A stretch of DNA of 62,961 bases, the filler included. It is 5 parts of 5 records of this genome, joined end to end, with 100 filler letters (N's around TTAATTAATTAA, not from the genome) between each part and the next. Parts side by side here need not be neighbours in the genome. Positions count along the whole stretch, not along the records: positions 56,150 to 62,961 come from SRR31156797_6579; 4 more parts are not named here. One strand, given 5' to 3'. The translations under genes were made by a program, and so were the position numbers. Below the pieces are notes generated by a model. It worked only from the letters and a program-made list of their open reading frames with translations. It was not told where the DNA came from and did not search any database. Positions 45,733 to 62,961 of this stretch are shown here, in pieces. Within the stretch, counting starts at the first letter, position 1. Each line of letters starts with the position of its first letter.

Positions 45733-45758
45733 ATTTGCCCCCAGCGATTCGGCTATCA

Positions 45759-45793
45759 TGTACAATTGTACAACAGTTGTACGATTTGTCAAG
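45759..45793 (-). promoter_or_regulatory. Sigma70 promoter with overlapping operator palindromes for vapC-phd
   Basis: Minus strand TTGACA-N16-TACAAT; palindromes TGTACAATTGTACA (45759-45772) and GTACAAC-A-GTTGTAC (45768-45782). Confidence 0.8.
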
Positions 45794-45910
45794 CATAAAG
45801 AATCCAAAAAACAATTTAATGTAATGTTCCCCGAATCACTTTTGAAAGACATTGATGAATACAGGGGCAAACATGGTTTGAAAAGGTCGGGTCATCGCGG
45901 ATTAGCGTGA
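45791..45910 (+). pseudogene. Possible remnant of a ribbon-helix-helix domain (HicB C-terminal / CopG-like)
   Basis: KKQFNVMFPESLLKDIDEYRGKHGLKRSG fits the RHH pattern; no proper start. Confidence 0.45.
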
Positions 45911-45918
45911 ATTTATCA

Positions 45919-46018
45919 NNNNNNNNNNNNNNNNNNNNNNNNNNNNNNNNNNNNNNNNNNNNTTAATTAATTAANNNNNNNNNNNNNNNNNNNNNNNNNN
46001 NNNNNNNNNNNNNNNNNN
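45919..46018. other. Artificial contig spacer
   Basis: N44-TTAATTAATTAA-N44. Confidence 0.99.
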
Positions 46019-46050
46019 TTTACAAAAAGGGTTTAAGCCGCCGGAGGCAA
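46019..46050. repeat. REP-like repeat at the contig start
   Basis: AAAAGGGTTTAAG-CCGCCGGAGGCA; shares both motifs with the element at the other end of this contig. Confidence 0.65.
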
Positions 46051-46056
46051 TAAAAT

Positions 46057-46719
46057 ATGTCAAAAGAAAAAATAGAAGTAGGCGTTATCGGTCTTGGTAA
46101 ATTCGGTCTGGAGCTGGCCTTGAACCTGCGCAAGCTGGGCCATAATGTTGTGGGTGTTGATACCAGCGAAGAACGGGTCAAGGCAGCCAAACCTTACCTC
46201 GCACAAGTATTTCAGGCCGACGGTACTGATCCCCAGACACTGGAACAACTCAGCTTTCAGGATTTTAATTATGTGGTGGTCTCCACCGGAGATTCACTGG
46301 AAGCAAGTGTTCTGGTGGTCCTCAACCTGCAGGAAATCGGGGTTAACAAAATCTGGGTCAAAGCCATCAGCGTGGCCCATAAAAAAGTGCTCAGCAGAAT
46401 GGGCGTGGATTATGTTGTTTTCCCGGAACATTTTGCAGCAAAACAGCTGGCTCATAAACTATCCACCCCGGGCATGATCGAATATCTGTCCATGGGTAAT
46501 GATATTCTGATCAAAGAACGCCAAGCCGCAGACTGGGCCGGAAAGACCCTCATAGACCTCGACCTGACCAATAATTATCAGGTACAGGTCATCGCTATCC
46601 GCAAAAATGGATCAGAAGAACTGAACTTCGTGCCCAAGGCCAGTAAACCTCTGGGCGAAAATGATGTGCTGATTATGATCGGAGCGCGGGAAAACCTGCT
46701 CAAACTGCCGGATAATTAA
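46057..46719 (+). CDS. ktrA: TrkA/KtrA potassium uptake RCK protein
   Basis: GLGKFG Rossmann motif; TrkA_N and TrkA_C domains. Confidence 0.9.
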   Translation: MSKEKIEVGVIGLGKFGLELALNLRKLGHNVVGVDTSEERVKAAKPYLAQVFQADGTDPQTLEQLSFQDFNYVVVSTGDSLEASVLVVLNLQEIGVNKIWVKAISVAHKKVLSRMGVDYVVFPEHFAAKQLAHKLSTPGMIEYLSMGNDILIKERQAADWAGKTLIDLDLTNNYQVQVIAIRKNGSEELNFVPKASKPLGENDVLIMIGARENLLKLPDN

Positions 46720-47696
46720 AGATCGTCCACATTATAAAGATTCTTTTCGATTTCCTTCATCTGCATGTCCTCCTCTTCAAGAGCGATCATGCGATCCCGG
46801 ATTTCATGGGTCTTTTCAATGGCATCATCAAGCTCCACACCGGCGGCAACCTGCATTTTGCGTAACAGATTCAGAATATCGCTGCGCAGAGTCTTACCTT
46901 TATCCCCTGCTCCCATTTCACGAAGCATGCTCTCATCTTCTTCGGTTTTCTTGATCAAATGGTGACAGAACTTCTGGGCTTCCTGAACACCACGGTTCTT
47001 TTCAAGACACATGGTCAGATAGCGAAAGCAATTCTCCCAATCTCCTGCTTCGTAATGGGTTCGGGCGATGTTGAAGAAAAGATTTTCATCGGCACTGTCG
47101 AGATCGACTCCCCGATTATAATACTGCAAGGCCTCGCGGTACATGCCGTTCTTACGCATGGAAATACCGAAATCATTAAACATATGCTTGTGCTCAGTCT
47201 GAAAGGCAGACTTGAGTTGCAGGACTTTTGCAAACACTTCCTGCGCACGTTCCACATCTCCTTTTTCAAGATAGGTCAGGCCGAGACCGAAAGTTGCGCG
47301 GACATTTTCTTCATCCACAGCCAAGGCATCGGCGTACTCCATCTCCGCACTGTAGAACTCCCCCTGCTCTCGATGAGCCTCGCCCCTGCTCAATCTTCCA
47401 TCCTGCTGCTCCATAGCCGGACGGACATGCTGCTGGAAATAATCCAGTTCAAGAGTATAATGGGCGGCAAACTCCCCGCTGCTGACGACCTCGGGGTCAC
47501 CGGAAGGAACACTGTTTTCATTCAAAAGCAGCAATTCGAAACTTTCGTCGTCCAGCTTGCTGGCCAACCAGTATTTCTTGCCTTTTATTTTATGCGAATC
47601 TGAACGCAAAGAGACCACCGTAATAAATTCGGTTTCCTCTTCGGTTACCTGATCGTCAGGAGGAGTATAATTAAATAATGAGGATTCACTACTCAT
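46716..47696 (-). CDS. Tetratricopeptide repeat protein
   Basis: ENVRATFGLGLTYL, HKHMFNDFGISMRK, DENLFFNIAR TPR motifs. Confidence 0.88.
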   Translation of the reverse strand: MSSESSLFNYTPPDDQVTEEETEFITVVSLRSDSHKIKGKKYWLASKLDDESFELLLLNENSVPSGDPEVVSSGEFAAHYTLELDYFQQHVRPAMEQQDGRLSRGEAHREQGEFYSAEMEYADALAVDEENVRATFGLGLTYLEKGDVERAQEVFAKVLQLKSAFQTEHKHMFNDFGISMRKNGMYREALQYYNRGVDLDSADENLFFNIARTHYEAGDWENCFRYLTMCLEKNRGVQEAQKFCHHLIKKTEEDESMLREMGAGDKGKTLRSDILNLLRKMQVAAGVELDDAIEKTHEIRDRMIALEEEDMQMKEIEKNLYNVDDL

Positions 47697-47875
47697 GGAG
47701 TAAGCCTCCGGAGACCCCTATAAAACAGGATCGGGCTTGAAATTGTTGCAGACCCCTCATCTACACCAGCTTAATCGGCATTTAATCCATTTCCATTTAG
47801 AGTTCCAGCATCTAAAGAAAAATGAAGCTTTCTGTATCTGGAACTTCACAAAGAAATTCGCTAGGCTTCAGTCCG

Positions 47876-48679
47876 ATGAATAAATACCGTCCAATATTAA
47901 TATTATTTACCGCCATCTTTATACTGCACTTTTTCGGGCTAAAAAGCTACGCCCGAGAAAAAACAGGCGCTCCGCTCATCAAATGCAAACTGCTCAACCA
48001 GTTCCCGCACGATGATACGGCTTTCACGCAGGGTTTTTTATATCACGACGGCTACTTATACGAAAGCACCGGCAAGCGTGGGAGTTCTTCCCTGCGTAAG
48101 GTGGAGCTGAAAAGCGGCATCGTACGCACTATAGCCAAAAACGATAATGATGTTTTCAGTGAAGGAATATGTTACTGGAACAACAGATTTTACCAACTTA
48201 CATGGCGGTCCGGTAAATGTTTCATATATGACTCCACTTCCCTTGCCCGCAAAGGATTCTTCAAATACAAAGGGCAGGGATGGGGACTGACCACTGACGG
48301 ACAATTCATCTATCAGAGCAACGGCTCGTCAGTGATCACTTTCAGGGACCCGTATGATTTCGCACGCATCAAAAGGTTGCGGATCACAGACGGTATTGCC
48401 AACATCCATCGCCTTAATGAACTTGAATATATAAACGGCCTGATTTTCAGCAATATCTGGAAAAAAGACCGCATTGCTATCATTGATCCCGAGAAAGGCA
48501 AAGTCAAATTCTGGTTGGATGTATCCTCTTTGCGCCCTCTTGCCGGAGAAAAGGCCGAAGCCGCTAACGGCATAGCCTGGGATGCTGCCGGGAAAAGACT
48601 CTTCGTGACCGGAAAATTCTGGAATAAGGTTTTTGAAATTGAACTACCCACACTTGAAAATCAGCCCTCTTCACACTGA
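47876..48679 (+). CDS. Glutaminyl-peptide cyclotransferase (type I, beta-propeller)
   Basis: PHD..AFTQG, YESTG, FSEG, QLTW, GWGLT, LNELE, NGIAWD, VTGKFW; signal peptide. Confidence 0.93.
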   Translation: MNKYRPILILFTAIFILHFFGLKSYAREKTGAPLIKCKLLNQFPHDDTAFTQGFLYHDGYLYESTGKRGSSSLRKVELKSGIVRTIAKNDNDVFSEGICYWNNRFYQLTWRSGKCFIYDSTSLARKGFFKYKGQGWGLTTDGQFIYQSNGSSVITFRDPYDFARIKRLRITDGIANIHRLNELEYINGLIFSNIWKKDRIAIIDPEKGKVKFWLDVSSLRPLAGEKAEAANGIAWDAAGKRLFVTGKFWNKVFEIELPTLENQPSSH

Positions 48680-48683
48680 TCAG

Positions 48684-51600
48684 ATGACAATTTCACTGGG
48701 CATTTGCGCCGGAGCTTCCTCAGTCAGCATACTCCTGACCGGAAACGATAACGGCAGGATTGAAATACTCAAATCAATTTCACTAAACCACGAAGGCAAT
48801 CCCGCGCAGACTGTAATCAATGCTTTGCGGGAGCTGGACTTACCCGAAGGTATCCCCGCAGCAGTCACCGGGCGCAAATTCCGCCACCTGCTGGACCTGC
48901 CGACCATCTCTGAACCGCAGGCTCTTGAAACAGCACTGGCTAAGCAAAATTTCGTTAAAGATGGCTATCGCACCGTGCTCAGCGCAGGCGGGGAAACCTT
49001 CATGGCCTACCTGCTGGATAGCAACGGCAAAGTGGAAACCGTGCACACCGGGAATAAATGCGCTTCCGGTACCGGAGAATTTCTGGTCCAGCAACTGGGC
49101 CGCATGGGTCTGACTTTAGAAGATATGTCGGCCATGGAAATGAGTGAACCGCACAAAGTTTCCGGTCGATGCTCGGTTTTCTGCAAGAGCGACTGCACCC
49201 ACGCCCTCAACAAAGGGATTGAAAAAGAAGCGGTGGTAGCAGGACTGGCCCGCATGATGGCAGGGAAGTGCATAGAACTGTTACGCAAGTTACCCGCTGA
49301 AAAAGTCGCCCTGATCGGTAATTGTTCACAGAATAAATTTATGGTCAACGAGCTGCGCAGAGAAATACCGGACTTACTCCTGCCTCAGCACGGCAACACT
49401 TTCGAAGCTCTCGGCGCAGCAATCTGGGCTGCTGAAAACGGCAGAGTACTTCCCGAAGACTGCAACACCATTATCCACAAAGGTGACACCGCATTCACTT
49501 TTCTGCAGCCACTGAAAAACTTCACAGATTCCGTTAAATTTCACGAAAGTACCAAGGCAGAATTCACCCCCGGAAACAGGCTGTCCTTGGGTCTTGATGT
49601 AGGTTCGACCACCACCAAAGGCGTGCTTCTTGATCTGGATCGAAACGAGATCGTGGCATCCTGCTATCTGCGCACGGATGGCGACCCCATCGGAGCCTCT
49701 CGCCGGGTTTATAGCGATCTGGCAGCTCAGGTCCCCGCCGGAACCAAAACCAAAGTTCTGGGGGTGACCGGATCGGGCCGCAACATTGCCGGACTGCATG
49801 CGGGAACGGACGGAATCATCAATGAGATTACCGCCCACGCTACTGCCGCTGTACATTATGATCCTGATGTAGACACAATTTTCGAAATAGGCGGGCAGGA
49901 TGCCAAATACACATGGCTGAAGAACTCGGTCCCCTGTGACTATGCCATGAATGAGGCTTGTAGTGCCGGGACCGGATCATTCCTCGAAGAAAGTGCCAAA
50001 GAGACATTAGGCATTGATGTAACTGACATTGCCGAAGTAGCATTCAAAGGAGCAAATCCACCCAATTTTAACGACCAGTGTGCGGCCTTCATCGGCTCGG
50101 ACCTCAAACTTGCAGCGCAGGAAGGTGTTCCGCTTGAAGATATGGTTGCCGGACTGGTCTACTCCATCTGCATCAACTACTCCAACCGGGTCAAAGGCAA
50201 CCGTACTGTAGGACAGAAAATTTTCATGCAGGGCGGGGTCTGCTACAACAAAGCCGTCCCCACAGCCATGGCCGCACTGACTGGGCAGCAAATTATCGTC
50301 CCACCCCATCCGGGACTAACCGGAGCCTTCGGAGTCGCCCTCGAAGCAGCTAAGCGAGCCGAACAAGGGACCATCGCCAAGGGAAGCTTCGATCCTGCGG
50401 AACTCGCCAGACGCGAAGTGACTTACAAGTCACCCTTCACCTGCAACGGAGCCGGACGGAATTGCGATCTCGGCTGCACCATTGCCCGCATTGAAGTTGA
50501 GGGCAAAACCTTTCCTTTCGGCGGCATCTGCAACCGCTTTGATAATTCCAAGGTCGCCAAGGGCACTAAGCCCGGAGAAGACCTTGTGCTCTGGCGGGAG
50601 AAACGGGTTTTCCGCGATTTAACTGAACCAGAGAAAGGCCAGCCGGTCATAGGCATGAATCGTTCCCTGCTCATGAATACGTGGTTCCCGCTCTTCAATA
50701 CATTTTTCAAAAAAATGGGTTTCGGGGTCCGCCTGCCTGATCAGGTTGATCCTGACTCCATTGAACAGAAAGGCGCTCCCTTCTGCCATCCGGTAGAGTT
50801 GGCCCACGGCGGGATGGGCGAACTACTTAAGCTTGAGACCGATCATATTTTCCTGCCCCATCTGCGCTCCATGCCGCTTAAGAGCGGTGACCGTTCCTGT
50901 ACCTGTGTGCTGGTTCAAGGCGAACCGTACTACCTTAAATCAGCCTTCCCGGAACTGGAAGAACGATCCTTACTGACCCCGGTCATTCACATGCAGGACG
51001 GAGAAGAACAATTACGCAAGGCTCTGCTTCATACCGCAGCCAAACTGCAAATAGGTGTACAGCTGGCTCTGGATGCCCTTGAAACAGCCCTTGCCGAGCA
51101 GGAACAATTCTTTGCCGACCTGCGTCTTAAAGGTGAAGAATTTATGGCCGGACTAAATGAAAACGATCAACAGTCCATGGTGCTTTTCGGCAGGCCCTAC
51201 AACGCCTTCAGTTCATGGGCCAATAAATCTATTCCCGCAAAATTCGCCACCCGCGGAGTTGAAATTATCCCCTGCGACATGCTCCCGCGCAGCGAGAAGT
51301 GCGGTAACGAGCTGAACATGTACTGGGCCACCGGAGAACAGATAATGGACGCTGCCAAGCTGGTGGCAGCCCATCCCAAACTTTTCGGCACTTACATCAC
51401 CAATTTTTCCTGCGGGCCGGACTCCTTTCTGCTCGGTCATTTCCGCAAGGTCATGGGCCGCAAGCCCTCGCTGACCCTTGAATTGGACAGCCATACTGCT
51501 GATGCCGGAATCGAAACCCGCATCGAAGCCTTCCTCGATATTGTGGATGGTTTCAGCCGTTTTGAAGAGCCACAGAAATCCATTGCCAACCCTTTCTGTG

Positions 51601-52889
51601 CAGCGCGCTGCGAAGTGCGTGACGGAATTACCGGGATTACCGATTCAAAAGACAAATGGCATGCGGTGAATGATCCAAAAGTAACCCTGATCATCCCCAG
51701 CCTTGGCGAAATCAGCACTGATTTTCTGGCCGCTTCCATGCAACGCGATAACATCCGCTATAAAGTGCTATCCCATGCCAACGAAGCCGCCCTGAAAATG
51801 GGCCGCAACAATTCTTCCTGCAAGGAATGTCTGCCCTTGCAACTAACTGCCGGAGCCTTGCTGGAACATCTGAAAAAACGAGACGAGAACGAAATATCCC
51901 TCTTCCTGATGCCTAAGGCCAAAGGGCCGTGCCGCTTCGGACAATATTCTGTGTTCATGAACGATCTCATCGAACGGCTCGAAATCCCGAATATTGCCAT
52001 CTTCGCACCCAGTTCCACAGACGGGTACGGAGGCCTCAGCACTAGTGTAACGCTGGGCATGTGGCAGGGCATTGTCACCGGCTCCATTCTTGAGGATATA
52101 CACGCCACTATTTGTACTGCAGCCAAAAACAAAGACGCGGCCCTGAAACTTTTCTGGCTAGTGCGCCAAGAATTGCTTGATGCCATGGCAAGCTGGAAAG
52201 AATTTTCCAAAGCCCTGCGCAAAGCCGCGCTCGACCTTTCCTCCATCAAACTGGCAAAGCCAGTACAGGAGTATCCGGTTATATCCCTGCTGGGTGAAAT
52301 TTACGTACGCCATGATCCATTGGCTAGACGCAACCTGCCGGAAAGACTTACTGAACAGGGATTTATTGTCCGCGTGGCCCCGGTGCTGGAATGGATGAAA
52401 TACACAGACTGGCTGAACCGCAACAGCATTGAAGGCAAGGCCGGGATCAAAACCCTGATCACCCAAGGTGTGAAATCATATTTTGAACGTCGAATCCGCC
52501 ATATTCTTACAGACAGCGGCCTGCTCTTCTATCCCGGACCGAATGTGCGCGAAGTGGTCAGCCACGGCAAGCCGCACATTTCTGAACAGCTCACCGGAGA
52601 AGCAATCCTGACAGTAGGAACATCCCTGCATGAAATCATGTCCCCATCCTGCGGGGTAATCTCCATCGGTCCTTTCGGATGCATGCCTTCGCGGGTAGCT
52701 GAAGCAGTTCTCAGCGAAAAATTCCGGGCCGGATCAGCCGGAAAAAAGGCAACCTCTGTACTTGCAGAAGACTCACGCTTACCCTTCCTTGCCATTGAAA
52801 CAGACGGCAATCCATTTCCGCAGCTGATCGAAGCGCGACTGGAAGCATTCTGCTTGCAGGCCAGACGACTCCATGAACGGATGTGTTAG
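48684..52889 (+). CDS. CoA-substrate-specific enzyme activase fusion (two BadF/BadG/BcrA/BcrD ATPase domains plus DUF2229 / dehydratase-like domains)
   Basis: NKCASGTG, RCSVFCKSD, GLDVGSTTTK, EIGGQDAK, NEACSAGTG, NFSCGPD, GPFGCMP. Confidence 0.92.
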   Translation: MTISLGICAGASSVSILLTGNDNGRIEILKSISLNHEGNPAQTVINALRELDLPEGIPAAVTGRKFRHLLDLPTISEPQALETALAKQNFVKDGYRTVLSAGGETFMAYLLDSNGKVETVHTGNKCASGTGEFLVQQLGRMGLTLEDMSAMEMSEPHKVSGRCSVFCKSDCTHALNKGIEKEAVVAGLARMMAGKCIELLRKLPAEKVALIGNCSQNKFMVNELRREIPDLLLPQHGNTFEALGAAIWAAENGRVLPEDCNTIIHKGDTAFTFLQPLKNFTDSVKFHESTKAEFTPGNRLSLGLDVGSTTTKGVLLDLDRNEIVASCYLRTDGDPIGASRRVYSDLAAQVPAGTKTKVLGVTGSGRNIAGLHAGTDGIINEITAHATAAVHYDPDVDTIFEIGGQDAKYTWLKNSVPCDYAMNEACSAGTGSFLEESAKETLGIDVTDIAEVAFKGANPPNFNDQCAAFIGSDLKLAAQEGVPLEDMVAGLVYSICINYSNRVKGNRTVGQKIFMQGGVCYNKAVPTAMAALTGQQIIVPPHPGLTGAFGVALEAAKRAEQGTIAKGSFDPAELARREVTYKSPFTCNGAGRNCDLGCTIARIEVEGKTFPFGGICNRFDNSKVAKGTKPGEDLVLWREKRVFRDLTEPEKGQPVIGMNRSLLMNTWFPLFNTFFKKMGFGVRLPDQVDPDSIEQKGAPFCHPVELAHGGMGELLKLETDHIFLPHLRSMPLKSGDRSCTCVLVQGEPYYLKSAFPELEERSLLTPVIHMQDGEEQLRKALLHTAAKLQIGVQLALDALETALAEQEQFFADLRLKGEEFMAGLNENDQQSMVLFGRPYNAFSSWANKSIPAKFATRGVEIIPCDMLPRSEKCGNELNMYWATGEQIMDAAKLVAAHPKLFGTYITNFSCGPDSFLLGHFRKVMGRKPSLTLELDSHTADAGIETRIEAFLDIVDGFSRFEEPQKSIANPFCAARCEVRDGITGITDSKDKWHAVNDPKVTLIIPSLGEISTDFLAASMQRDNIRYKVLSHANEAALKMGRNNSSCKECLPLQLTAGALLEHLKKRDENEISLFLMPKAKGPCRFGQYSVFMNDLIERLEIPNIAIFAPSSTDGYGGLSTSVTLGMWQGIVTGSILEDIHATICTAAKNKDAALKLFWLVRQELLDAMASWKEFSKALRKAALDLSSIKLAKPVQEYPVISLLGEIYVRHDPLARRNLPERLTEQGFIVRVAPVLEWMKYTDWLNRNSIEGKAGIKTLITQGVKSYFERRIRHILTDSGLLFYPGPNVREVVSHGKPHISEQLTGEAILTVGTSLHEIMSPSCGVISIGPFGCMPSRVAEAVLSEKFRAGSAGKKATSVLAEDSRLPFLAIETDGNPFPQLIEARLEAFCLQARRLHERMC

Positions 52890-53003
52890 ACTGCCGATTT
52901 TAAAATTAACACTAGCTTAGTTCTTCTTGATATAGCACAAGCTATCATGGTACCACCTCTCAGGATAAATTTAAGCGGAAACGCTTGTCGGGGGAGGAAA
53001 ACG

Positions 53004-55238
53004 TTGAATAGAAGAATTGTCGGCTTGAGCCTGTTAATCCTGCTTGTTACAATATGTGGGTGCAGGACGGTAAGGTCCATAAAAACGGATATCAAAGAAA
53101 CTGTAATTTCCTCCCAACCTGAGGATAAATTTTCTCAAGCACTGGACCGGAACAAGTTTTCAGAGGCTGAAAAAATATGGCTTGATAATCAGGATTATTT
53201 CCTTGAAAACCCGAAAGCCATGGATAAGATAACCAAAGCAGCCTCATATCTCAAAAAGCGCTACCGCCCGAAAATTTCTGCCGCCACCACCAATCTCCTT
53301 TCCATCCACTGGCCCGCAAAGTCCGCAAAGTGGACCCTGATCCGCCTTAAGCTGGACAATGGCCGTGATTTAATCGCCGAAATTGACTCCAGCATCATCC
53401 TGAATGACCTAGACCAGCTTCCCCCCGGCCTTGAGAAGCTGAAAAAGAAATTTCGCGAAAAAGAATCAAAAATTAACGCTGACGCACAGGCCCAGTTCAA
53501 AAAGTATCCACTTCAGACCGGACCAAACTTCTTTTCCATCTACCCCGTCAAACTGGACGAAGCTAAATTCTTAAAATCGCAGGCCGCCCTGCTGGAACAG
53601 ACTGTAGCTTCCGCTATCGGGAACGGTGTGCCGCATATGATAAAGGAATACGGCGATGTCATCCCGGCTAAGACCATGCGTAATCTCGAAGGCCAATATT
53701 TCCGGGATCTGCTCAAAAAAGAAGCAAAGGGTAAAAAACCTTCCTTCCGTACAGTGATCAAAACCATGAAGGAAGCCAAGCGCCTCGGCTTCCCCGTAAC
53801 CGAAGTACCGGACTGCAAAATCGCCTTTGTGCGCGTGACCAGTAAAACTCTACTGAAAGAGCACGGTATTGAATTCGGTTTAGGATTTGATGTGGACCTG
53901 CCCATGGAAACCGAAACACTGGCAAAGACCCACATGTTCAACTCCAAGACCGCCAAAGATGCAGATGTGGTCATCCTCATCAACGAAGTCGTATCCAGAA
54001 TTGACCGCAAGACTTTTCGGCCTACAGCATATAGCAGTAAGCACGTTATCGGATATGAGGAAGGATACAACCATGCCTACGATCAGGCCCAGTTGCGTTT
54101 AGAGCAATTAAAATTGAAACGCCAAGAACTTAACGAGCGCAACAACTCCCATATTCTGGGCTTGTTCGGGGCCAGTGACATAACCTCCGCTGCGCAGATG
54201 GCAGCACAGGAGGAACGGAAATACAATGAAGCTGTCGCTAATGCCACCAACATCCCGCGTATGATTGATAAGCCTGTCTACAAAAACTACCACTTCAGTG
54301 TCGTGCCGCTGCGGACAACGAAAATTGCCTCAGTGCAATACGTGATTATCGACCGCAAATCACACACCTATTTCACAGACTTCTTTGATATTGTTCAGGA
54401 AAAAAACTTCAAAATAGCTTACGGCATAAAACTGGATGACCCGGACCGTGAAACCCATGGAATTCGATTCAATACGGAAAAACAATTGCGTGAATGGGAA
54501 AGGCAACCTGTTGCGGTCCAACTGTCCGATATGCTCAACTATTATCTGGATCGCAAAGAAAAAGACAAAAGATATCACAACATGGCCCGGATTCAAAAAA
54601 TAATCATGAACAATCGTAATATGGCAGTGGCGGAATTCTACAGCGATAAATACGAATCCGATACCGGTAATGACCCACGCTATGATTCCACAGTCATAGT
54701 CCAGAGCCCTGACCGGAGAGGCAGAGGAAGCGGTTTTTTTGTTACCGACAACATAATCCTCACCAACTACCATGTAGTGGAAGCAAGTGAGTTTGTGGAA
54801 ATAAGTCTCCACAATAAGATTGAAGCCTTCGGTAAAGTCATGGCCTATGACCTATATCGGGATCTTGCATTAGTTAAAATCAATGTCCACGGTAAACCGG
54901 TTCGTTTCTACACCAATAACAGCCTTCCGGCTGGGGTAACCCTTGAAGCTATCGGACACCCCAAAAGATTTCCTTTTACCATAACCAGAGGAGTCTTCAG
55001 CGCATACAGAAAAAGAAAAAGTAAATACCTGCCCTCACGCCGCATGGTACGCTACATTCAAACTGACGCAGCCATTAACTCGGGTAATTCCGGTGGCCCA
55101 TTATTTTATAAGAATAAAGTTGTAGGCGTTAACACATGGAAAAGAATTGATCCGGGAGTCGACAACCTCGCATTCGCAGTACACTACGCTGAAATAATAG
55201 AATTTCTAGAACAATACGGCATTAAATACCGCAAATAA
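53004..55238 (+). CDS. Lipoprotein with C-terminal trypsin-like (S1C) serine protease domain
   Basis: Lipobox-like ICGC; ILTNYHVV, DLALVK, GNSGGPL catalytic triad; TTG start after GGAGG. Confidence 0.88.
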   Translation: MNRRIVGLSLLILLVTICGCRTVRSIKTDIKETVISSQPEDKFSQALDRNKFSEAEKIWLDNQDYFLENPKAMDKITKAASYLKKRYRPKISAATTNLLSIHWPAKSAKWTLIRLKLDNGRDLIAEIDSSIILNDLDQLPPGLEKLKKKFREKESKINADAQAQFKKYPLQTGPNFFSIYPVKLDEAKFLKSQAALLEQTVASAIGNGVPHMIKEYGDVIPAKTMRNLEGQYFRDLLKKEAKGKKPSFRTVIKTMKEAKRLGFPVTEVPDCKIAFVRVTSKTLLKEHGIEFGLGFDVDLPMETETLAKTHMFNSKTAKDADVVILINEVVSRIDRKTFRPTAYSSKHVIGYEEGYNHAYDQAQLRLEQLKLKRQELNERNNSHILGLFGASDITSAAQMAAQEERKYNEAVANATNIPRMIDKPVYKNYHFSVVPLRTTKIASVQYVIIDRKSHTYFTDFFDIVQEKNFKIAYGIKLDDPDRETHGIRFNTEKQLREWERQPVAVQLSDMLNYYLDRKEKDKRYHNMARIQKIIMNNRNMAVAEFYSDKYESDTGNDPRYDSTVIVQSPDRRGRGSGFFVTDNIILTNYHVVEASEFVEISLHNKIEAFGKVMAYDLYRDLALVKINVHGKPVRFYTNNSLPAGVTLEAIGHPKRFPFTITRGVFSAYRKRKSKYLPSRRMVRYIQTDAAINSGNSGGPLFYKNKVVGVNTWKRIDPGVDNLAFAVHYAEIIEFLEQYGIKYRK

Positions 55239-55249
55239 GGAGCCTGGAA

Positions 55250-55990
55250 TTGAAAAAAAGCATTTTCATCTTAATAACAGTGGCAACGATCATGGCTCTG
55301 TTACTCATGACCGGGTGCCGCAGCAAGCAGCGCATGGGCATGGTCCGCGACCAGAAAACAGGACTGCTTTACGGCTCCATGACCAGCGGCAACTTTATGA
55401 TCGACCCTTCCCAGTTCGATACCCCGGTATTAAAATTAACCATCCGCAATACTTCCGGGGACCCGGCAATAAACCTTAAAGCCCTGCGCAAAACCATAGA
55501 AAGCGCATATATAGATAAGGGCTACAAGGTAGTCAAAACAGGAAAATATTCCATGCACTTAGACATAAATCTGCGTTATTCCGGACAGATTTCACAGAAT
55601 ATGGTTGATGAAATCAGACTTTGGGGTGGAACAGGCGGAGCATACATGGGGGCAAGCTTGGGACAGAACCTCGATTCCATGGTGCTTGGCTCCGCATCCG
55701 GTGCGGCCATCGGGGCCATCATCGGCCAATATACTACGCAGGATACCTACATCATGGTCGCGGATGTAATCCTCGGAGTCGTGGATAAGTATGCCAAAAA
55801 GCGTAAAGCTATTGTCCAGTTTGATGACACTCAAATCAAATGGGAGGACGAGGATGATGGCTATACTGCCTACCGCTCCCGCGAACGCATCAAAGCGGCG
55901 GTCTATGCCGGAGGAGACAACACGCCGCAGAGCAAAATCGTACGCGGAGTTACGCTGAGATTTAAGAATATTTTACAGGATATTATCTAA
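55250..55990 (+). CDS. TraT-like outer-membrane lipoprotein
   Basis: MTGC lipobox; IRNTSGD, KGYKVV, glycine zipper, TYIMVADV. Confidence 0.72.
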   Translation: MKKSIFILITVATIMALLLMTGCRSKQRMGMVRDQKTGLLYGSMTSGNFMIDPSQFDTPVLKLTIRNTSGDPAINLKALRKTIESAYIDKGYKVVKTGKYSMHLDINLRYSGQISQNMVDEIRLWGGTGGAYMGASLGQNLDSMVLGSASGAAIGAIIGQYTTQDTYIMVADVILGVVDKYAKKRKAIVQFDDTQIKWEDEDDGYTAYRSRERIKAAVYAGGDNTPQSKIVRGVTLRFKNILQDII

Positions 55991-55993
55991 AAC

Positions 55994-56049
55994 ATGCCTC
56001 CGGGGTCCCGGCCGGGGTCCTTAAACCCTTTTGGGAAAAGGGTTTAAGA
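55994..56049. repeat. REP-like palindromic repeat at the contig end
   Basis: TGCCTCCGG...CTTAAACCCTTTT-GGG-AAAAGGGTTTAAG (13-bp stem). Confidence 0.7.
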
Positions 56050-56149
56050 NNNNNNNNNNNNNNNNNNNNNNNNNNNNNNNNNNNNNNNNNNNNTTAATTA
56101 ATTAANNNNNNNNNNNNNNNNNNNNNNNNNNNNNNNNNNNNNNNNNNNN
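56050..56149. other. Artificial contig spacer
   Basis: N44-TTAATTAATTAA-N44. Confidence 0.99.
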
Positions 56150-56172
56150 ATTGACCCAATAATTGGGTCAAT
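56150..56172. repeat. Perfect inverted repeat at the contig start
   Basis: ATTGACCCAA-TAA-TTGGGTCAAT. Confidence 0.55.
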
Positions 56173-56252
56173 CTTAATTATTCATATCCTTGAATTAAAA
56201 TTTAAATTTTCTTATTTTCGGACAATAACAATAAACTCAATAGGTGAATTAT

Positions 56253-56831
56253 ATGAAGAACACTATCACATATCCCGAAGCAACAATAATATTTAATACC
56301 TACTTAAAGACCGAATACCTTCGTTTACACTGCAGAGAGACTGAAGTCATCATGAGGGCACTAGCCCGTCACTTAGGTCAAGATGAAGATTTTTGGGGCA
56401 TTACCGGACTTTTACACGATCTGGACTTGGATGAGATCGGTGATGATATGAGCAAGCATGGAACTCATACGGTTGAATTACTGAAAAAAGAGGGTTATGA
56501 CATACCCGAAATGTTTGATGCTATTAAATCGCATGTTCAAGGTATTGAAGGACTACCCTATAAACGTGAAACCGATTTTCAATTTATTCTTTCCGGTGCG
56601 GAAAATATTACAGGCTTGATCAGCGCATACGTTATTCTACGTCCGGAGAAAAAAATTGAGGGTGTAAAAGTAAAATCCATTAAGAAAAAATTCAAGTCAC
56701 CGGCGTTTGCAGCAAAAGTAAGTCGTGAATTTATTCAAGATGCCGCTGATCACGCGGGCTTGGAATTGGGTGAGTTCATTGCTTTATCGATCGAAGCGAT
56801 GTCCGGCATCGCTGAAGAGATCGGCATGTAA
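56253..56831 (+). CDS. HD/HDIG domain hydrolase
   Basis: LHC.E.E..MRALA, GLLHDLD, HG, AIKSH, KKKFK...FAAKVSRE. Confidence 0.88.
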   Translation: MKNTITYPEATIIFNTYLKTEYLRLHCRETEVIMRALARHLGQDEDFWGITGLLHDLDLDEIGDDMSKHGTHTVELLKKEGYDIPEMFDAIKSHVQGIEGLPYKRETDFQFILSGAENITGLISAYVILRPEKKIEGVKVKSIKKKFKSPAFAAKVSREFIQDAADHAGLELGEFIALSIEAMSGIAEEIGM

Positions 56832-56833
56832 AA

Positions 56834-59800
56834 TCAGGATCTTTTTTCTATTACGTTTTCAATGATCTCCATAAGAGATTTGACATTGATCGGTTTTGAC
56901 AAATGTCCATCCAAAGCATCCGTTAGTTCTTTATTCCTAATAAAATCAAGTGTATTGTCACTGATACCAACAATAGGTATCATGTTCTCTTTCTTTATCT
57001 CCTTGACCATATCGCAGGTAAAACCAAGCATATCAGTATCAACAAGTAACATATCCGGATCATATTTCTTCAAATAAGCCAGAATATCTCCAGTGTTCGT
57101 TGCTCTTATAAGTTGATATTTTCCTTTCAGCACAACATCAAGTAAAACATAAGAACTTTCATCATCCTCTGCGATCAATAAAGTATAGGGATTCTCGGCT
57201 ACACCATCTATAATTTCATTTGCAGAGGGTTCAATCTCAGCTATATCTATCTTAGCTTTCTTGTATTTGATCGTAAAAAAAGCTGTGCTTCCTTGTCCGG
57301 GTGTAGAATCCATCCATATCCGCCCGCCCATTTTCTCGATCACGGCTTGTGAGATCGATAATCCAAGTCCGGTACCGCTTGAAAAGGGATCAACCTGTAT
57401 GAAGCGTTCAAAGACTTTCTCGAGCATATCTTTTTCAATACCAATGCCGGTGTCCTTGACATAGAACTCAATTTCATCCCGTTTGATCATGTATCCTAGC
57501 TCAATACGCCCTTCATTTGTGAATTTTATGGCGTTCGATAGCAAATTCATTAAAATTTGCTTTAAACGCATTTGATCCAGCTGAACATTGCTGGCTTGAA
57601 CATCGGCAAGTTCAAGCACAACAGTTGGAGGCAGATTGATCTTAACCTGATCTATAAGGTTTTCACATAGAGATAATAAATTACATGATTCAACATGCAT
57701 GACCAGCGAATCGGTTTCTATCCGTGAGATCTCAAGTATATCATTGATCAGTTTAAGTAAAAGATCATTATTTTCGTTAATAAATGAAAGATACTTTCGT
57801 TTATCTTCCAGACTTAAGTTCTCACGCCCCAGTAAATTTGAAAATCCGACAATACCATTTAAAGGTGTTCTGATCTCATGCGATATATTTGAGATGAATG
57901 CTGACTTCAATTGATCGGACTCTTCAGCTTTCTCCTTTGCTTTGATCAACTCCTCTTCCTGGCGTTTACGATCTTCGATATTCATCATGAACCCGTCGAT
58001 CGCCAGACCTTTTCCATTCTCATCGCGCGAGGAGATAACACCTCGAACTTCAACCCAGGTATCTTTGCCGGAAAACGACATTCTCAATTCGGATAAGATC
58101 GTATCACGTACACCCAGAATAGCTTCATTAACTTCTCCAATAAATGCATTTGCATCTTCAGGGTGTACCGAATTCAAATAATAATTGGAGTCTTTGGGAT
58201 CCTCTTCCAATGTCGATGGATCAATATCCAGAGCCAACCAGAAATTATCGTCTTTGTTTAGGATATTATTAACAAGATCCCATTCCCAGTACGAGTTGCG
58301 GCTATTCTGAAGAGTTTCATTCAATCTGGCTTTACTGACCCTTATCTCTTCTTCATGTTGCTTTCTAAGAGTGATATCATTGATGATCGAATAAATAAAT
58401 GTTTTGTCATTCTCTTTAAGAATACTCAAAATAACTTGAGCATAAAATGTACTTCGATCATTCTTGAACATTTCCATCTCAAAAGGAGCTTTCAGAAGAT
58501 TATCCAGATTCGCTTTCAGCTCATTAAAATTGTTAAAATATTTGTTTAATGGATAGTTTAGAAACTTTGCTTTAGGCACTTCAAAAAGGTTCAATGCCTT
58601 GTCGTTAAAAGCGATAACATTACTGCTCTCCAATTCAAAGATCACGATAGCGGAGTTGGATTGTTCGAATAATATGTTGTATCTATTTGCCAATTGTTTG
58701 GTTTTCTCAGTCATTTCGGTTCGCTGAGCTTCAAAATTGCGATATCTGAAGTGATAAAGCAGCAAAAGCCAGAACATTACGAACATAAGAATGATCAAAC
58801 CTAATGTTAAAAAGAAGAAAGTTCTATACTGGCTATACACTGTCTGAGGTTTATTTACGATCGTGGATCCCTTGGGAAGATCCCATTGTTTAATATTCCA
58901 TCTATTCAGCTCTTCCCAATTAAAACGATACGTATTCTTATCACTGACTCTGTCCAGATCTTCCAATAATTCACCAAACAGCAATTGGATACCAAGTTCT
59001 GCTGCCAGTTTTCCCTGTGTAAAGGGACTGGTAACAAATCCACCCAGAAAGGCATTTGAAACACCTAGATCCATAACGGTTAAAATAGGTGAATTACACA
59101 CTTCAGCATATCGCGGATAGTATTTTGCCGGATCCCAATATCTACCCTCACCATCAACCTGCCAGATCGAGAAGATAACAAATGTGTTTTCGGGCAAACT
59201 TGCAAGCGATTGCATTAATTCGGTCGTACTCATTCCGCTATAACCGTTCAGCCAGATAAGATCCTGATCCTTCAAGTCCATGTTTTTTACAGTTTTCTTG
59301 GCGGAATAATAATGTGCTGCTCCCGTTCTTGATCTATCTGAAACAATTGCTATATGCTCGGTATTTGGAAACAACTCTAAACCAAATTCAATATTTTCTT
59401 TGAATGGCAGATATTCTTCTACTCCAATAAACATGCTACAAGTGTCAGCATGACGGGCAATATCATCACTCACACCGCAATAAACGATCGGCATTTGATG
59501 ATATTTATGCCCAATTGCAGACAATGAATAGATCGCATTGTCATCTGATACAATGATCAGATCAAGATAATCCTTGGGATATGCATCGAGTCGTTGTTCT
59601 AAAAATCCTTTCCAGGATTGCCTATCCAATATGCGTTTTGTATCCATATTCTGAATATGGATCTGGACATTCAGGTCACGCTCTTCAAAGGTCTCCAGCA
59701 CACCTTTTGTAATAGCATCTGTCCAGGGATGGCCCTGATGATAAGAATTGAGGATCAAAATATTCTTGCTATAATTAAGGTCCAGTGCTTCTATATTGAC

Positions 59801-59902
59801 ATTTACTGCATTATCAACAGCAAATGAAAGCAGAGGTAAATTAACGAGAACCATCAGATAAATCAAAAGCCACAAAAACCTAATGTTCTTGATCCTACTC
59901 AT
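56834..59902 (-). CDS. Hybrid sensor histidine kinase (ABC substrate-binding-like sensor, TM, two PAS, HisKA, HATPase, receiver)
   Basis: ILILNSYHQG sensor domain; SHEIRTPLNG, NLLSNAIKF, DTGIGI, GTGLGL; C-terminal LLIAEDD receiver. Start uncertain (59902-59959). Confidence 0.93.
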   Translation of the reverse strand: MSRIKNIRFLWLLIYLMVLVNLPLLSFAVDNAVNVNIEALDLNYSKNILILNSYHQGHPWTDAITKGVLETFEERDLNVQIHIQNMDTKRILDRQSWKGFLEQRLDAYPKDYLDLIIVSDDNAIYSLSAIGHKYHQMPIVYCGVSDDIARHADTCSMFIGVEEYLPFKENIEFGLELFPNTEHIAIVSDRSRTGAAHYYSAKKTVKNMDLKDQDLIWLNGYSGMSTTELMQSLASLPENTFVIFSIWQVDGEGRYWDPAKYYPRYAEVCNSPILTVMDLGVSNAFLGGFVTSPFTQGKLAAELGIQLLFGELLEDLDRVSDKNTYRFNWEELNRWNIKQWDLPKGSTIVNKPQTVYSQYRTFFFLTLGLIILMFVMFWLLLLYHFRYRNFEAQRTEMTEKTKQLANRYNILFEQSNSAIVIFELESSNVIAFNDKALNLFEVPKAKFLNYPLNKYFNNFNELKANLDNLLKAPFEMEMFKNDRSTFYAQVILSILKENDKTFIYSIINDITLRKQHEEEIRVSKARLNETLQNSRNSYWEWDLVNNILNKDDNFWLALDIDPSTLEEDPKDSNYYLNSVHPEDANAFIGEVNEAILGVRDTILSELRMSFSGKDTWVEVRGVISSRDENGKGLAIDGFMMNIEDRKRQEEELIKAKEKAEESDQLKSAFISNISHEIRTPLNGIVGFSNLLGRENLSLEDKRKYLSFINENNDLLLKLINDILEISRIETDSLVMHVESCNLLSLCENLIDQVKINLPPTVVLELADVQASNVQLDQMRLKQILMNLLSNAIKFTNEGRIELGYMIKRDEIEFYVKDTGIGIEKDMLEKVFERFIQVDPFSSGTGLGLSISQAVIEKMGGRIWMDSTPGQGSTAFFTIKYKKAKIDIAEIEPSANEIIDGVAENPYTLLIAEDDESSYVLLDVVLKGKYQLIRATNTGDILAYLKKYDPDMLLVDTDMLGFTCDMVKEIKKENMIPIVGISDNTLDFIRNKELTDALDGHLSKPINVKSLMEIIENVIEKRS

Positions 59903-60032
59903 GTATACATCATGGCATTTCATCATATTCTCCTGATATAAACAGGACCTCTCGTGCAATTAATTATTAATATTAATTATAAACTAAATTACATATAAAA
60001 GACAGACTTTTTTAGATCACTGAAACAATATG

Positions 60033-61304
60033 CTACATTTGTATGAGACGTTCTTCCAGGCTGGCCCTATATGCTTTAAGATCAATCTTTTTCCTGGCTA
60101 CCCCGGTGCGAACGGCCGCTTCAGCAACGGCATATGATTCCCAAACAAATACGCGGGGATCAAATGGCTTGGGGATCACGTAATCTTTCCCAAATTCAAA
60201 GTGCTGTCCACCGTAAGCTTTTTCAACTTCCGGTATACACGATTCTTTGGCAAGATCTGCCAGAGCTTTGGTCGCAGCAACCTTCATCTCTTCGTTGATC
60301 GCTGATGCATGCACATCCAATGCACCTCTAAAAATGAAGGGGAATCCCAGCACATTATTCACTTGATTGGGATAATCAGAGCGTCCGGTCCCCGCAAGAG
60401 CATCGGGCCGTACTTTAATGATCTCTTCATATGGGATCTCGGGGGTGGGATTTGCCATGGGGAATAAAATAGGCTTATCTGCCATGGTTTTGATCATTTC
60501 GGAAGTGACCAAACCACCAACCGACAAACCAATAAAGATATCAGCATTTTCAAAGGCTTCAGCCAATGTTGCTTTATCAGTCTCGTTAACGAACTGTCTT
60601 TTTGTTTCGTCAAGTTCATCATATCGCGCTTTATTCAGGATCCCTTTTCTGTCACACATGTAAATATTTTTATGTTTCGCACCCAGTTGTTCATAATGTT
60701 TTGCACATGATATTGCGGCAGCACCGGCACCGGAGATCACGATCTTGCATTCTCCAAGTTCTTTGCCTTGAATTTCACAGGCATTTACCACGGCAGCACC
60801 GGAAATAATGGCAGTTCCATGTTGGTCGTCATGAAAAACCGGAATATTCATTTCTTTGATCAGTGTTTCTTCAATATAAAAGCACTCAGGGGCTTTGATA
60901 TCTTCAAGGTTAATACCACCAAAGGTTGGTTCCATAGCTTTTACTACCTTGATGATCTCGTCAGGATCCTTCGTATCTATTTCAATATCATAAACATCCA
61001 CATCGGCAAAACGTTTGAAAAGAACACCTTTTCCCTCCATAACCGGTTTTCCGGCAGCTGCACCGATATCACCCAGGCCAAGAACTGCCGTTCCGTTCGA
61101 AATAACAGCCACAAGATTGCCCTTATTAGTGTATTTATATACGTCTTGAGGATTCTTCTCAATCTCCAGACAGGGCTCAGCCACACCCGGTGTATATGCC
61201 AGGCTTAATTCTTCTTGAGTTTCACATTTTTTAGTAGCTTTAACTGTCAATTTCCCCGCAATGGGTTCCGCATGATATGCCAGTGCCTGTTTTTTGGTGA
61301 TCAT
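60033..61304 (-). CDS. maeB: NAD(P)-dependent malic enzyme (no PTA domain)
   Basis: [48 protein letters not shown]. Confidence 0.93.
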
Positions 61305-61503
61305 TTTATCTCCGAATGATTTTGTTTCCCTCTAACGCTGGAAAATAATATAAATGATTTTTTTATAAAAGAATTAATCTGTTGAAATGTTGATGCGTGA
61401 TGCGTTGATATTAAGGAACAAATTGTAAAATAGTGATATTGAATAAATGTTTCATTTTTGGCAATTATGCTTTACTTTATGTTAAACAATAATCGGAGCA
61501 GCT

Positions 61504-61677
61504 ATGAAAAAGATCATCAAGTTTTGGGATATCTTACTTGTAGCCTTACTTGGGATCCTGGGCAGCAGTTGCAAGATCAATGAACCGCCTCCCGCTGAAT
61601 ACGGTCCCGAACCTGAGTACGGAGTATATTACTCGACTCAGATCGATATAGAACTTCTTGAAGAGAACGATCGCTAA
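61504..61677 (+). CDS. Radical SAM-associated mini-lipoprotein precursor A (57 aa, two EYG motifs); not in the ORF track
   Basis: Manual translation MKKIIKFWDILLVALLGILGSSCKINEPPPAEYGPEPEYGVYYSTQIDIELLEENDR; GGAG RBS; paralog of the next ORF. Confidence 0.88.
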   Translation: MKKIIKFWDILLVALLGILGSSCKINEPPPAEYGPEPEYGVYYSTQIDIELLEENDR

Positions 61678-61697
61678 AACCTACAGGAAAGATAACA

Positions 61698-61883
61698 ATG
61701 AAGAAGGTAATCAAGATCTGGGATATTATGTTGATCGCTATCATGGGTGTTTTTGGAGCGGGTTGTATCTTAGATCCACCGGCACCCGAATACGGAGTGG
61801 AACCAATGTATGGCGTCCCTGCCGCCGTTCAAGATGCGGATGAAGATAATCAGAAAGAAGCACCCGTAGAATTCACTAAATAA
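61698..61883 (+). CDS. Radical SAM-associated mini-lipoprotein precursor B (61 aa, EYG and MYG motifs)
   Basis: MKKVIKIWDIMLIAIMGVFGAGCILDPPAPEYGVEPMYGVPAA...; lipobox-like Cys23. Confidence 0.88.
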   Translation: MKKVIKIWDIMLIAIMGVFGAGCILDPPAPEYGVEPMYGVPAAVQDADEDNQKEAPVEFTK

Positions 61884-61905
61884 TCCTTATTGATCACATT
61901 TCCAT

Positions 61906-62961
61906 ATGAAGCTAAATAAAAAACTCTTTTTTAATGCTTTTCGCCTATACCGGCATAATCAAGCCCGTCTGCATCAGTTGAATTATTTGTTTTGGGAATG
62001 CACTTTGAAGTGCAATCTGGATTGTGCCCACTGCGGTAGCGATTGCTCTAAAGAAAGCCTGGTCCCCGATATGCCTCTTGATGATTTTTTGAATGTCCTT
62101 GATCGTATCAAAGATGAGTATGATCCGGGTAAGGTCATGGTGGTTCTTACCGGTGGTGAACCCACACTTCGTCCCGACTTGGAACTGGCAGGTAAAGAAT
62201 TCAATAAACGCGGTTTCCCTTGGGGTATGGTTTCCAATGGTTATGCTTTGAACGAAGAGAAATTCAAGGCTTTAAGAATAGCCGGACTTGCCTCTCTGAC
62301 AATTTCATTGGATGGATTGGAAGAAAGCCATGACTGGTTCAGAGGCCGCCAAGGATCATATGAACGTGCATTGAATGCAATCAATATTGCTGCAAAAACC
62401 GACATGACCTTTGACGTAGTAACATGCGTTCATCAACGAAATATCAATGAACTGCCAGCGATCAGAGATATGCTGATAGAAAAAGGTATTAAAAAGTGGC
62501 GCATCTTTATCATCTTCCCAAAGGGGCGTGCAAAAGATAATCCCGACTTGATCCTCAGCGATGAGCAATTCCGTTACATTTATGATTTCATCGTTGAAAT
62601 GCGCAAAGCGGATCAAATAAAAGCCTCTGCCGGCTGTGAAGGTTTTCTTGGAGATTATGAACTTGAAGCCCGCAACTATCCTTTCTTTTGCCGGGCCGGT
62701 ATTCAGATCGGCTCCGTTTTGGCAGATGGCTCCATTTCCGCTTGTCCCAGCTTAAGAGCCGACTATATCCAGGGCAATATTTATCAGGATGATTTTCTGG
62801 ATGTCTGGAACAGCAAATTCCAGGTCATGCGAAAGCGAAAATGGACTAAGACCGGCAAGTGCAAGACATGCAAGGTTTATAAGTATTGTGAAGGTAATGG
62901 CCTGCATTTGAGGGATGAGAAGACAGGCGAGTTGCTTTTGTGTCATTATGAAAAACTGCAG
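61906..62961 (+). CDS. Radical SAM/SPASM peptide maturase (TIGR04133-like, splicease-related); stop codon lies beyond the window; not in the ORF track
   Basis: Manual translation, 352 open codons: FWECTLKCNLDCAHCGSDC, TGGEP, ISLDG, CEGFLG, CRAGI...DGSISACPS, CKTCKVYKYCEGNG...CH (SPASM). Confidence 0.92.
   Translation, partial: MKLNKKLFFNAFRLYRHNQARLHQLNYLFWECTLKCNLDCAHCGSDCSKESLVPDMPLDDFLNVLDRIKDEYDPGKVMVVLTGGEPTLRPDLELAGKEFNKRGFPWGMVSNGYALNEEKFKALRIAGLASLTISLDGLEESHDWFRGRQGSYERALNAINIAAKTDMTFDVVTCVHQRNINELPAIRDMLIEKGIKKWRIFIIFPKGRAKDNPDLILSDEQFRYIYDFIVEMRKADQIKASAGCEGFLGDYELEARNYPFFCRAGIQIGSVLADGSISACPSLRADYIQGNIYQDDFLDVWNSKFQVMRKRKWTKTGKCKTCKVYKYCEGNGLHLRDEKTGELLLCHYEKLQ

Follow-up and report, generated by a model that had tools for sequence, protein, structure and literature searches.

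Two short lipoprotein-type peptides with paired Tyr-Gly sites beside a TIGR04133 radical SAM/SPASM enzyme: a candidate precursor-enzyme unit, possibly of splicease type

The stretch of DNA analysed here (hereafter the window; 62,961 nucleotides, contigs joined end to end) ends in three co-oriented genes: two short open reading frames (ORFs), ORF A and ORF B, and a gene for a radical S-adenosylmethionine (SAM)/SPASM enzyme of the family TIGR04133. Judging from their sequences, the three make up one compact unit of two precursors and one enzyme, which appears to be a domain-less form of the TIGR04133 'radical SAM with lipoprotein' system. Both precursors are very probably substrates of the adjacent enzyme. 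The explanation that we consider best on the whole combines this unit and this pairing with a splicease-type reaction at x-Tyr-Gly and with export of the products as lipopeptides; we regard it as tentative, its likelihood falling just short of even.

ORF A (61504-61677, plus strand, 57 residues), ORF B (61698-61883, plus strand, 61 residues) and the enzyme gene (61906-62961, plus strand, 352 codons, with an open 3' end at the window edge) are separated by 20 nucleotides between ORF A and ORF B and by 22 nucleotides between the stop of ORF B and the enzyme start, and no terminator-like sites were found between the three. ORFs A and B are paralogues, identical at 28 of 65 aligned columns. Each opens with a signal peptide beginning MKK-x-I-K-x-W-D, followed by a hydrophobic stretch, a lipobox with Cys23 (61570-61572 in ORF A) and a Pro-rich spacer, and both fit a strict lipobox pattern modelled on the PROSITE rule. 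The core of precursor A, PPPAEYGPEPEYG (61585-61623, plus strand), has Tyr-Gly at residues 33-34 and 39-40 (AEYG and PEYG), and that of precursor B, PPAPEYGVEPMYG (61776-61814, plus strand), at residues 32-33 and 38-39 (PEYG and PMYG), the two sites being six residues apart in each. The tail beyond the last Tyr-Gly is acidic, with a net charge of -4 in either peptide. The mature parts would comprise 34 (A) and 38 (B) residues, with the first Tyr-Gly at mature positions 10 and 9, respectively, compared with a family median of 9. An earlier note on this DNA had described this arrangement, namely paralogous ORFs of 57 and 61 residues with signal peptide, Cys23, Pro-rich spacer, Tyr-Gly pairs six apart and acidic tail, with a SPASM radical SAM gene starting 22 nucleotides after ORF B, and our reading of the window bears out each of these elements.

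The Tyr-Gly sites of ORFs A and B are more than chance. At the background rate of 0.218 Tyr-Gly per 100 residues, derived from 132,603 residues of long ORFs in related loci, about 0.08 would be expected in 34 or 38 mature residues, and two are observed in each peptide. On TIGR04134, the NCBIfam model of radical SAM-associated lipoproteins, ORF A reached 14.8 bits against a cut-off of 39.8, the match covering only residues 4-38 (signal peptide and tether), and ORF B gave no match. Neither ORF matched any family in a Pfam scan, and a Protein Atlas search returned only unnamed small-protein clusters, with scores of 0.90-0.91. By sequence, ORFs A and B thus seem to correspond to the signal peptide and tether of a TIGR04134 protein, minus its domain of about 110 residues.

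The assignment of the enzyme to TIGR04133, already suggested in the earlier note, was confirmed by a score of 536.1 bits against a cut-off of 425, with residues 4-352 aligned to positions 2-350 of the 350 in the model. The next NCBIfam models were TIGR04053 (149 bits), TIGR04103 (148 bits) and heme b synthase (147 bits); in Pfam, the enzyme matched Radical_SAM (86.3 bits) and SPASM (38 bits). Cys36, Cys40 and Cys43 form the CX3CX2C motif, and these three together with nine further Cys are invariant in 47 family members. An 89% identical enzyme of 356 residues, in the same synteny in locus L096, a metagenome contig, ends four residues past the last codon of the window, which indicates that the window enzyme is nearly complete and lacks only about four codons and the stop. 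Further near relatives are found in L006 (80% identity), L012 (70%) and L015 (71%), on contigs of metagenome-assembled genomes labelled Candidatus Neomarinimicrobiota, which NCBI now places under Fidelibacterota in the Fibrobacteres-Chlorobi-Bacteroidetes (FCB) group, and in L010 (71%), labelled 'uncultured bacterium'. The family is common in anaerobic bacteria of gut, rumen and sediment, and the gene is present in Bacteroides thetaiotaomicron, which served as the positive control of our genome scan. An AlphaFold2 model of the enzyme, with a mean predicted local distance difference test score of 93.4, has no RiPP recognition element (RRE) domain (RiPP, a peptide made by the ribosome and then modified post-translationally) and carries a family-specific N-terminal helix at residues 3-22. 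Its best solved matches in Foldseek were SkfB (6efn), SuiB (5v1q-t), anSME (4k36-39), CteB (5why) and PqqE (6c8v), with E values of 2e-14 to 3e-12, query-normalised template modelling scores of 0.61-0.72 and sequence identities of 17-21%. By sequence, the nearest solved relatives are BlsE and SkfB (57-65 bits).

Counterparts of ORFs A and B lie at the same place in L006, L010, L012, L015 and L096, with the core kept and the tails variable. In an alignment of eight such short, domain-less partners (hereafter mini-forms), K2, C23, P28, E31, Y32, G33, P36, Y38 and G39 are invariant. As far as sequence comparison tells, the lipoprotein-type signal peptide and the paired x-Tyr-Gly sites are the sole parts of the peptides conserved among relatives. 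A lack of conservation of the Tyr-Gly motifs at homologous loci had been set beforehand, in the earlier note, as grounds for refutation; the sites proved to be conserved, so that no refutation comes from this side. A-type relatives occur in L096 (2542-2706) and in P0007, and the L096 counterpart of ORF B is identical from Cys23 to Val40 except for one residue, its signal peptide and tail having diverged. L096 has three mini-forms in tandem, two of A-type and one of B-type.

Two side observations concern these relatives. In L096 (2282-2975), the first mini-precursor has D-Y-N for D-Y-G at its second site and an extra E-Y-G 20 residues further on, which indicates that sites are gained and lost among paralogues. 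In L006, none of ATG, GTG and TTG stands where the B-type precursor (613-795) should begin; its frame there is I-I-K-K-L-I-K-I-W-D, which suggests an uncommon start codon or an error in sequencing.

A profile built on the eight-sequence alignment and searched against 1.84 billion representative proteins gave 60 matches at E <= 0.001, 14 of them at E <= 1e-10. Fifty-seven of the 60 are no longer than 110 residues. All 60 contain Tyr-Gly, which is partly built in because the profile itself contains the motif; 51 contain two or more, and 36 have a pair spaced exactly six. Of the 57 short matches, 44 carry a net negative charge past their last site. To regard the reduction to mini-lipopeptides as special to this organism would be too strong, given how widespread the subtype is (60 profile clusters as well as metagenome loci).

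TIGR04133 enzymes usually have lipoproteins of about 150 residues as their partners. All nine long partners tested passed TIGR04134 (75-134 bits), whereas none of the 11 short forms did, and CarboxypepD_reg was matched below threshold in seven of the eight long partners scanned against Pfam. These results agree with the earlier description of the usual partners as longer TIGR04134 lipoproteins with a folded domain and of the window peptides as reduced, domain-less ones. The two forms stand side by side in single loci (L011, L022, L024 and L030), and at least 12 changes of state between mini and long were counted on a tree of 143 distinct enzymes. On this tree, the window enzyme falls in a clade of six (Shimodaira-Hasegawa-like approximate likelihood ratio test, 99), of which five have mini-forms only; the sixth (L006) has the mini-form without a standard start codon, which our heuristic missed. 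Note that the pairing of enzyme and lipoprotein is itself already catalogued in NCBIfam; it is the domain-less paired-site lipopeptides that are covered by no family model scanned (NCBIfam, Pfam).

The case for the two peptides as substrates comes from the recurrent tie between the Tyr-Gly motif and the enzyme. We examined 80 genome loci plus the window (85 enzyme copies) and 80 metagenome loci (82 copies); some contigs are in both collections and kin are not independent, so the counts are descriptive. A strict lipobox heuristic found partners in 43 of 81 sources. With a relaxed heuristic, 62 of the 85 copies in the genome loci and window had an adjacent upstream lipobox ORF, 60 of these 62 with Tyr-Gly. 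Inspection by eye of the 23 misses revealed an overlooked, exported-looking ORF with Tyr-Gly in 19, some with an ordinary signal peptide and a sorting tail resembling those of type IX secretion systems (T9SS) and two located downstream of the enzyme; three were short of upstream DNA, and one (L081) had none. In the metagenome loci, such an ORF accompanied 54 of 82 copies and contained Tyr-Gly in 54 of 54. Pooled, 144 of 158 distinct adjacent lipobox ORFs contain the motif. We also applied a neutral test, which asks for a same-strand frame within 1.3 kb upstream with a basic residue, a hydrophobic run and Tyr-Gly within 45 residues; leaving out 14 of the 167 copies, which had less than 600 nucleotides upstream, it was positive for 135 of 153 enzyme copies, compared with 7 of 153 on the opposite strand.

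Moreover, Tyr-Gly is dense and well placed in these partners. In the genome loci, its density in partner ORFs is 1.22 per 100 residues, against the background of 0.218, and 82 of 97 ORFs have their first Tyr-Gly within 15 residues of the Cys. The consensus over 160 sites is (P/A/V)-(E/L/M/K)-Y-G-(V/T/C/S/A)-P-x-A-(D/T/E)-(Y/F): the residue before Tyr-Gly is E in 69, L in 21, M in 17 and K in 13, that after Gly is V in 39, T in 37, C in 17, S in 11 and A in 11, and Pro stands two positions past Gly in 95. In 95 of 144 ORFs, an uncontrolled count, an aromatic residue and then a polar one stand 12-22 residues ahead of the Cys, and the Cys-aligned signal-peptide profile is blurred. No conserved gene other than the partner was found beside the enzyme; downstream lie a convergent YaiO/TPR gene in L010 and oxidoreductase genes in L012. 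In seven loci of Paludibacteraceae type (L021, L037, L038, L039, L047, L060 and L062), the upstream Tyr-Gly partner has about 265 residues, a non-lipobox signal peptide and, by eye, a T9SS-like C-terminal sorting domain, and the partners of these enzymes would thus not be restricted to lipoproteins.

As to the reaction, spliceases appear to be the nearest other peptide-modifying family to TIGR04133 by BLAST and by tree, and a sister relation is favoured. In a tblastn search of plasmids, the three TIGR04133 genes were followed by enzymes of Nostoc (TIGR04103, 152 bits), Agathobacter (150) and Aureibacter (149), the last of these resembling the GDL-motif maturases. The Nostoc enzyme (L086) is a true TIGR04103 member (853 bits), and the precursor beside it has a Nif11 leader, a Gly-Gly (GG) site and an L-Y-G-L-P-P core, whose x-Y-G-x-P shape recurs in the window peptides and in the PlpA splice tags. 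In a 29-row maximum-likelihood (ML) tree, TIGR04133 (16 rows, support 100/100) groups with the splicease/GDL enzymes (four rows) at a support of 92/90; the other nine rows include AhbD, AhbC, MftC and a ScmF-like enzyme. In support of this idea, the published splicease target is XYG with a variable X, and the sites of TIGR04133 partners likewise vary before Tyr-Gly; the splice tags of PlpA have Pro two residues after Gly, as do TIGR04133 partners. Published work further describes two-component spliceases that work without a helper protein and precursors with two sites (PMC11002830, PMC11626197, PMC10533398, PMC9811515, PMC11414181).

However, several observations weigh against a splicease-type reaction. 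The 29-row tree contains a single true TIGR04103 row, and a clade of TIGR04133 with AhbC/AhbD survives an approximately unbiased (AU) test (p 0.242). The sister grouping with spliceases is recovered but not secured, as the alternative sister group stands unrejected. The TIGR04103 score of the window enzyme (148 bits against a cut-off of 725) is level with those of TIGR04053 and heme b synthase, and the scores of hidden Markov models (HMMs) are tied with the heme enzymes in both directions. The window enzyme is without the C-terminal extension of spliceases. The fourth SPASM Cys (CX2CX5CX3C) is Gly or Ser in all four aligned TIGR04133 rows and Cys in all six others; in the window enzyme this is Gly at residue 332, as against Cys in spliceases, GDL enzymes, AhbD and MftC. 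TIGR04133 rows carry Cys47 and Cys174 of their own, as well as Cys244, common to two of the six other rows. The loss of the fourth Cys, together with the family's own Cys, suggests that the auxiliary cluster of TIGR04133 enzymes may be ligated differently from that of other SPASM enzymes. Among the Aureibacter DUF1843 peptides next to a GDL-type enzyme, which belongs to the same group on the tree, Tyr-Gly occurs in none, none and one (near the N-terminus), respectively. Nor is every XYG motif spliced, as the D-Y-G site of RcsA was left unspliced. Our literature search, which did not take in the large 2022 splicease survey, found no published test of TIGR04133 chemistry. Finally, the lipid anchoring and export of precursors A and B are predicted from sequence patterns.

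With these points in mind, we propose the following course of events. The enzyme would bind each precursor in the cytoplasm prior to Sec export, the handle probably being the signal peptide with its conserved N-terminal K-x-(W/F)-(D/N) together with the P-x-x-E-Y-G core, such that the signal peptide would double as a leader. SAM would be cleaved to the 5'-deoxyadenosyl radical, which would attack the Tyr of each x-Tyr-Gly, and export, lipidation at Cys23 and cleavage by signal peptidase II would follow; the steps before and after export are drawn from established knowledge of radical SAM maturases and lipoprotein export. In a reaction of splicease type, both sites of either peptide would lose a tyramine unit (C8H9NO, -135.06 Da per site), turning Glu32 and Glu38 of A and Glu31 and Met37 of B into ketoamide residues. 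The end products in the envelope would be acidic-tailed lipopeptides some 34 and 38 residues long. We consider tyramine excision at x-Tyr-Gly a possible chemistry, at somewhat less than an even chance. It would be tempting to go further and view TIGR04133 as deep-branching, Sec-coupled spliceases, and the window peptides as membrane-anchored lipopeptides with two alpha-keto-beta-amino acid warheads each, six apart, but we hold this extended proposal to be rather doubtful.

The most serious alternative retains the pairing and the Tyr-Gly target and replaces tyramine excision by another radical chemistry, such as a crosslink (C-C or C-O, of cyclophane or ether type) that joins the ring or beta-carbon of Tyr to a neighbouring residue, beta-hydroxylation or epimerisation. 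The best solved folds for the enzyme model, listed above, are crosslinking or oxidising SPASM maturases, and the failure of the enzyme on TIGR04103, its auxiliary-cluster Cys unlike those of spliceases and the AU test, which leaves the sister group open, all point the same way. The Pro two past Gly and the six-residue period could equally frame a small ring. On the other hand, a crosslink to one particular acceptor side chain fits poorly with the variability of the residue after Gly, the splicease group is favoured by BLAST as well as by the ML tree, and we know of no other radical SAM peptide class with an invariant Tyr-Gly after a variable residue. Overall, we view a different chemistry at the same motif as a realistic possibility, though one that we are inclined to doubt.

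Alternatively, the lipoproteins might not be substrates at all, the enzyme acting on some other molecule, for example a cofactor, and the lipoproteins being partners, carriers or co-regulated envelope proteins. The HMM scores of AhbD, NirJ and TIGR04053 equal those of peptide maturases, and the unrejected AhbC/AhbD sister group fits this idea as well. Yet what the neighbouring gene keeps in more than 100 loci from several phyla is the signal peptide and the Tyr-Gly tether alone, while the domain comes and goes, no other conserved gene adjoins the enzyme, and tandem, fast-diverging multiple copies are typical of precursors. We therefore find it improbable that the peptides are not substrates. 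Far less credible still is that ORF A and/or ORF B are chance or decayed frames that are not expressed, since, short as they are, with no Pfam family and only a weak sub-threshold NCBIfam match for ORF A, they have counterparts with a conserved core in five loci, a profile matching 60 predicted-protein clusters, and tight spacing with no terminator.

If tyramine excision at both sites is true, the window would represent a lipidated class of spliceotides, and tethered protease inhibitors or reactive handles could be presented in the envelope of FCB bacteria (Bacteroidota, Fibrobacterota, Fidelibacterota). Ketoamide electrophiles, a known protease-inhibitor group, would then be placed by these bacteria on envelope peptides with a lipid anchor. 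Splicing at Tyr-Gly would also widen spliceotides from secreted peptides to lipoproteins and offer protein engineering natural substrates that are very short (13-residue cores). For a test, the mini-forms are the simplest objects, with two genes, two sites and a predicted mass change. Even with a different chemistry, the invariant Tyr-Gly motif would be the target of a new reaction.

How new the system is depends in part on earlier surveys. By the account of a review, Scott et al. 2022 (Chem 8:2659) reportedly screened all SPASM enzymes for Tyr-Gly-rich neighbours, detecting such neighbours in 189 genera and confirming 27 pairs. That survey may already include the TIGR04133 clade, which bears on novelty. 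Among the papers found in our search, none mentions TIGR04133, and TIGR04134 appears only in a review of the T9SS (PMC11611037). The Introduction of that review names TIGR04134 as the type B C-terminal domain model of the T9SS; TIGR04134 is the radical SAM-associated lipoprotein model in NCBIfam, so this usage looks like a slip. A search for SPASM enzymes with lipoproteins among the RiPPs of Bacteroidota yielded a single title of relevance, on graspetide loci, and no paper was found that brings together radical SAM enzymes, lipoproteins and tyramine in such bacteria.

Regarding the surroundings of the unit, the window joins five contigs (1-30019, 30120-40082, 40183-45918, 46019-56049 and 56150-62961), separated by spacers at 30020-30119, 40083-40182, 45919-46018 and 56050-56149, each of the form N44-TTAATTAATTAA-N44. 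On the last contig, of 6.8 kb (56150-62961), lie genes for a hybrid histidine kinase and a malic enzyme, together with the two small ORFs and the 3'-cut enzyme gene. The malic enzyme gene (60033-61304, minus strand; Pfam malic and Malic_M) lies outside the three-gene system and serves as a synteny marker: it is also a neighbour in L010 and L012 by Pfam, and in L006 and L096 it was recognised from ORF translations alone, without a family scan. The intergenic region between this divergent gene and ORF A (61305-61503, plus strand) is presumed to be the promoter region of the unit; it contains one sigma-70-like site upstream of ORF A (61405-61434), and such sites are no more frequent there than in shuffled sequence. 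Among sequencing runs, one DNA run, possibly the source sample, and no RNA run was found to contain the stretch.

The first contig (1-30019) is 97-99% identical to the complete genome G001, and some ten stretches of G001 resemble its last 150 bases (29870-30019) with 72-93% identity; this dispersed repeat probably explains the assembly break there. Window positions 40001-59000 have no real match in G001, and the G001 copy of the malic enzyme gene, whose locus is not syntenic, shares only 67% identity with the one on the last contig. No TIGR04133 member above the cut-off was found in G001 (best score 128.7 bits), and none of 401 genomes of its phylum had an enzyme match at E <= 1e-60. Because G001 matches the first contig only, these negatives in G001 and its phylum tell little about the organism that carries the three-gene unit. 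The five-contig assembly may mix organisms, or the unmatched contigs may be strain-specific.

Among known systems, the closest is the TIGR04133/TIGR04134 pair, described computationally in NCBIfam as hypothetical equivalogs. The window shares with it the family membership of the enzyme, a partner directly upstream, a lipoprotein signal peptide and an x-Tyr-Gly at a median of nine past the Cys, and differs in that its partners are without the beta-sandwich-like (CarboxypepD_reg-like) domain of about 110 residues and have two sites six apart and an acidic tail. SkfB, SuiB, anSME, CteB and PqqE have the same overall fold as the predicted model of the window enzyme, but none of them targets Tyr-Gly, and TIGR04133 has the N-terminal helix at residues 3-22 instead of an RRE. 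The GDL-motif maturases (TIGR03913) fall with spliceases in one larger clade, which the tree places as sister to TIGR04133, and they too have tandem small precursor genes upstream; unlike the window genes, these encode helical DUF1843 precursors without a signal peptide and mostly without Tyr-Gly, and the enzymes have 474-516 residues with a long C-terminal extension. GDL-type enzymes also lie behind two or three tandem DUF1843 genes on Aureibacter and Azospirillum plasmids (L087, 3153-5356; L089, 787-2937), and these loci look like a precursor-enzyme system close to spliceases. Finally, the spliceotide systems, PlpXY/PcpXY (type I, cyanobacteria) and the two-component RhaX, RcsX and RasX, resemble the window unit (PMC11414181, PMC11626197, PMC10533398) in having a SPASM enzyme beside its precursors, X-Tyr-Gly with a variable X and often a following x-Pro, one or more sites per precursor and, in the two-component spliceases, no need for a helper protein. 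They differ in the leader, which in spliceotides is Nif11, NHLP or another cytoplasmic leader with a GG site, whereas the window precursors have a Sec/lipoprotein signal peptide, and the window product would remain membrane-anchored.

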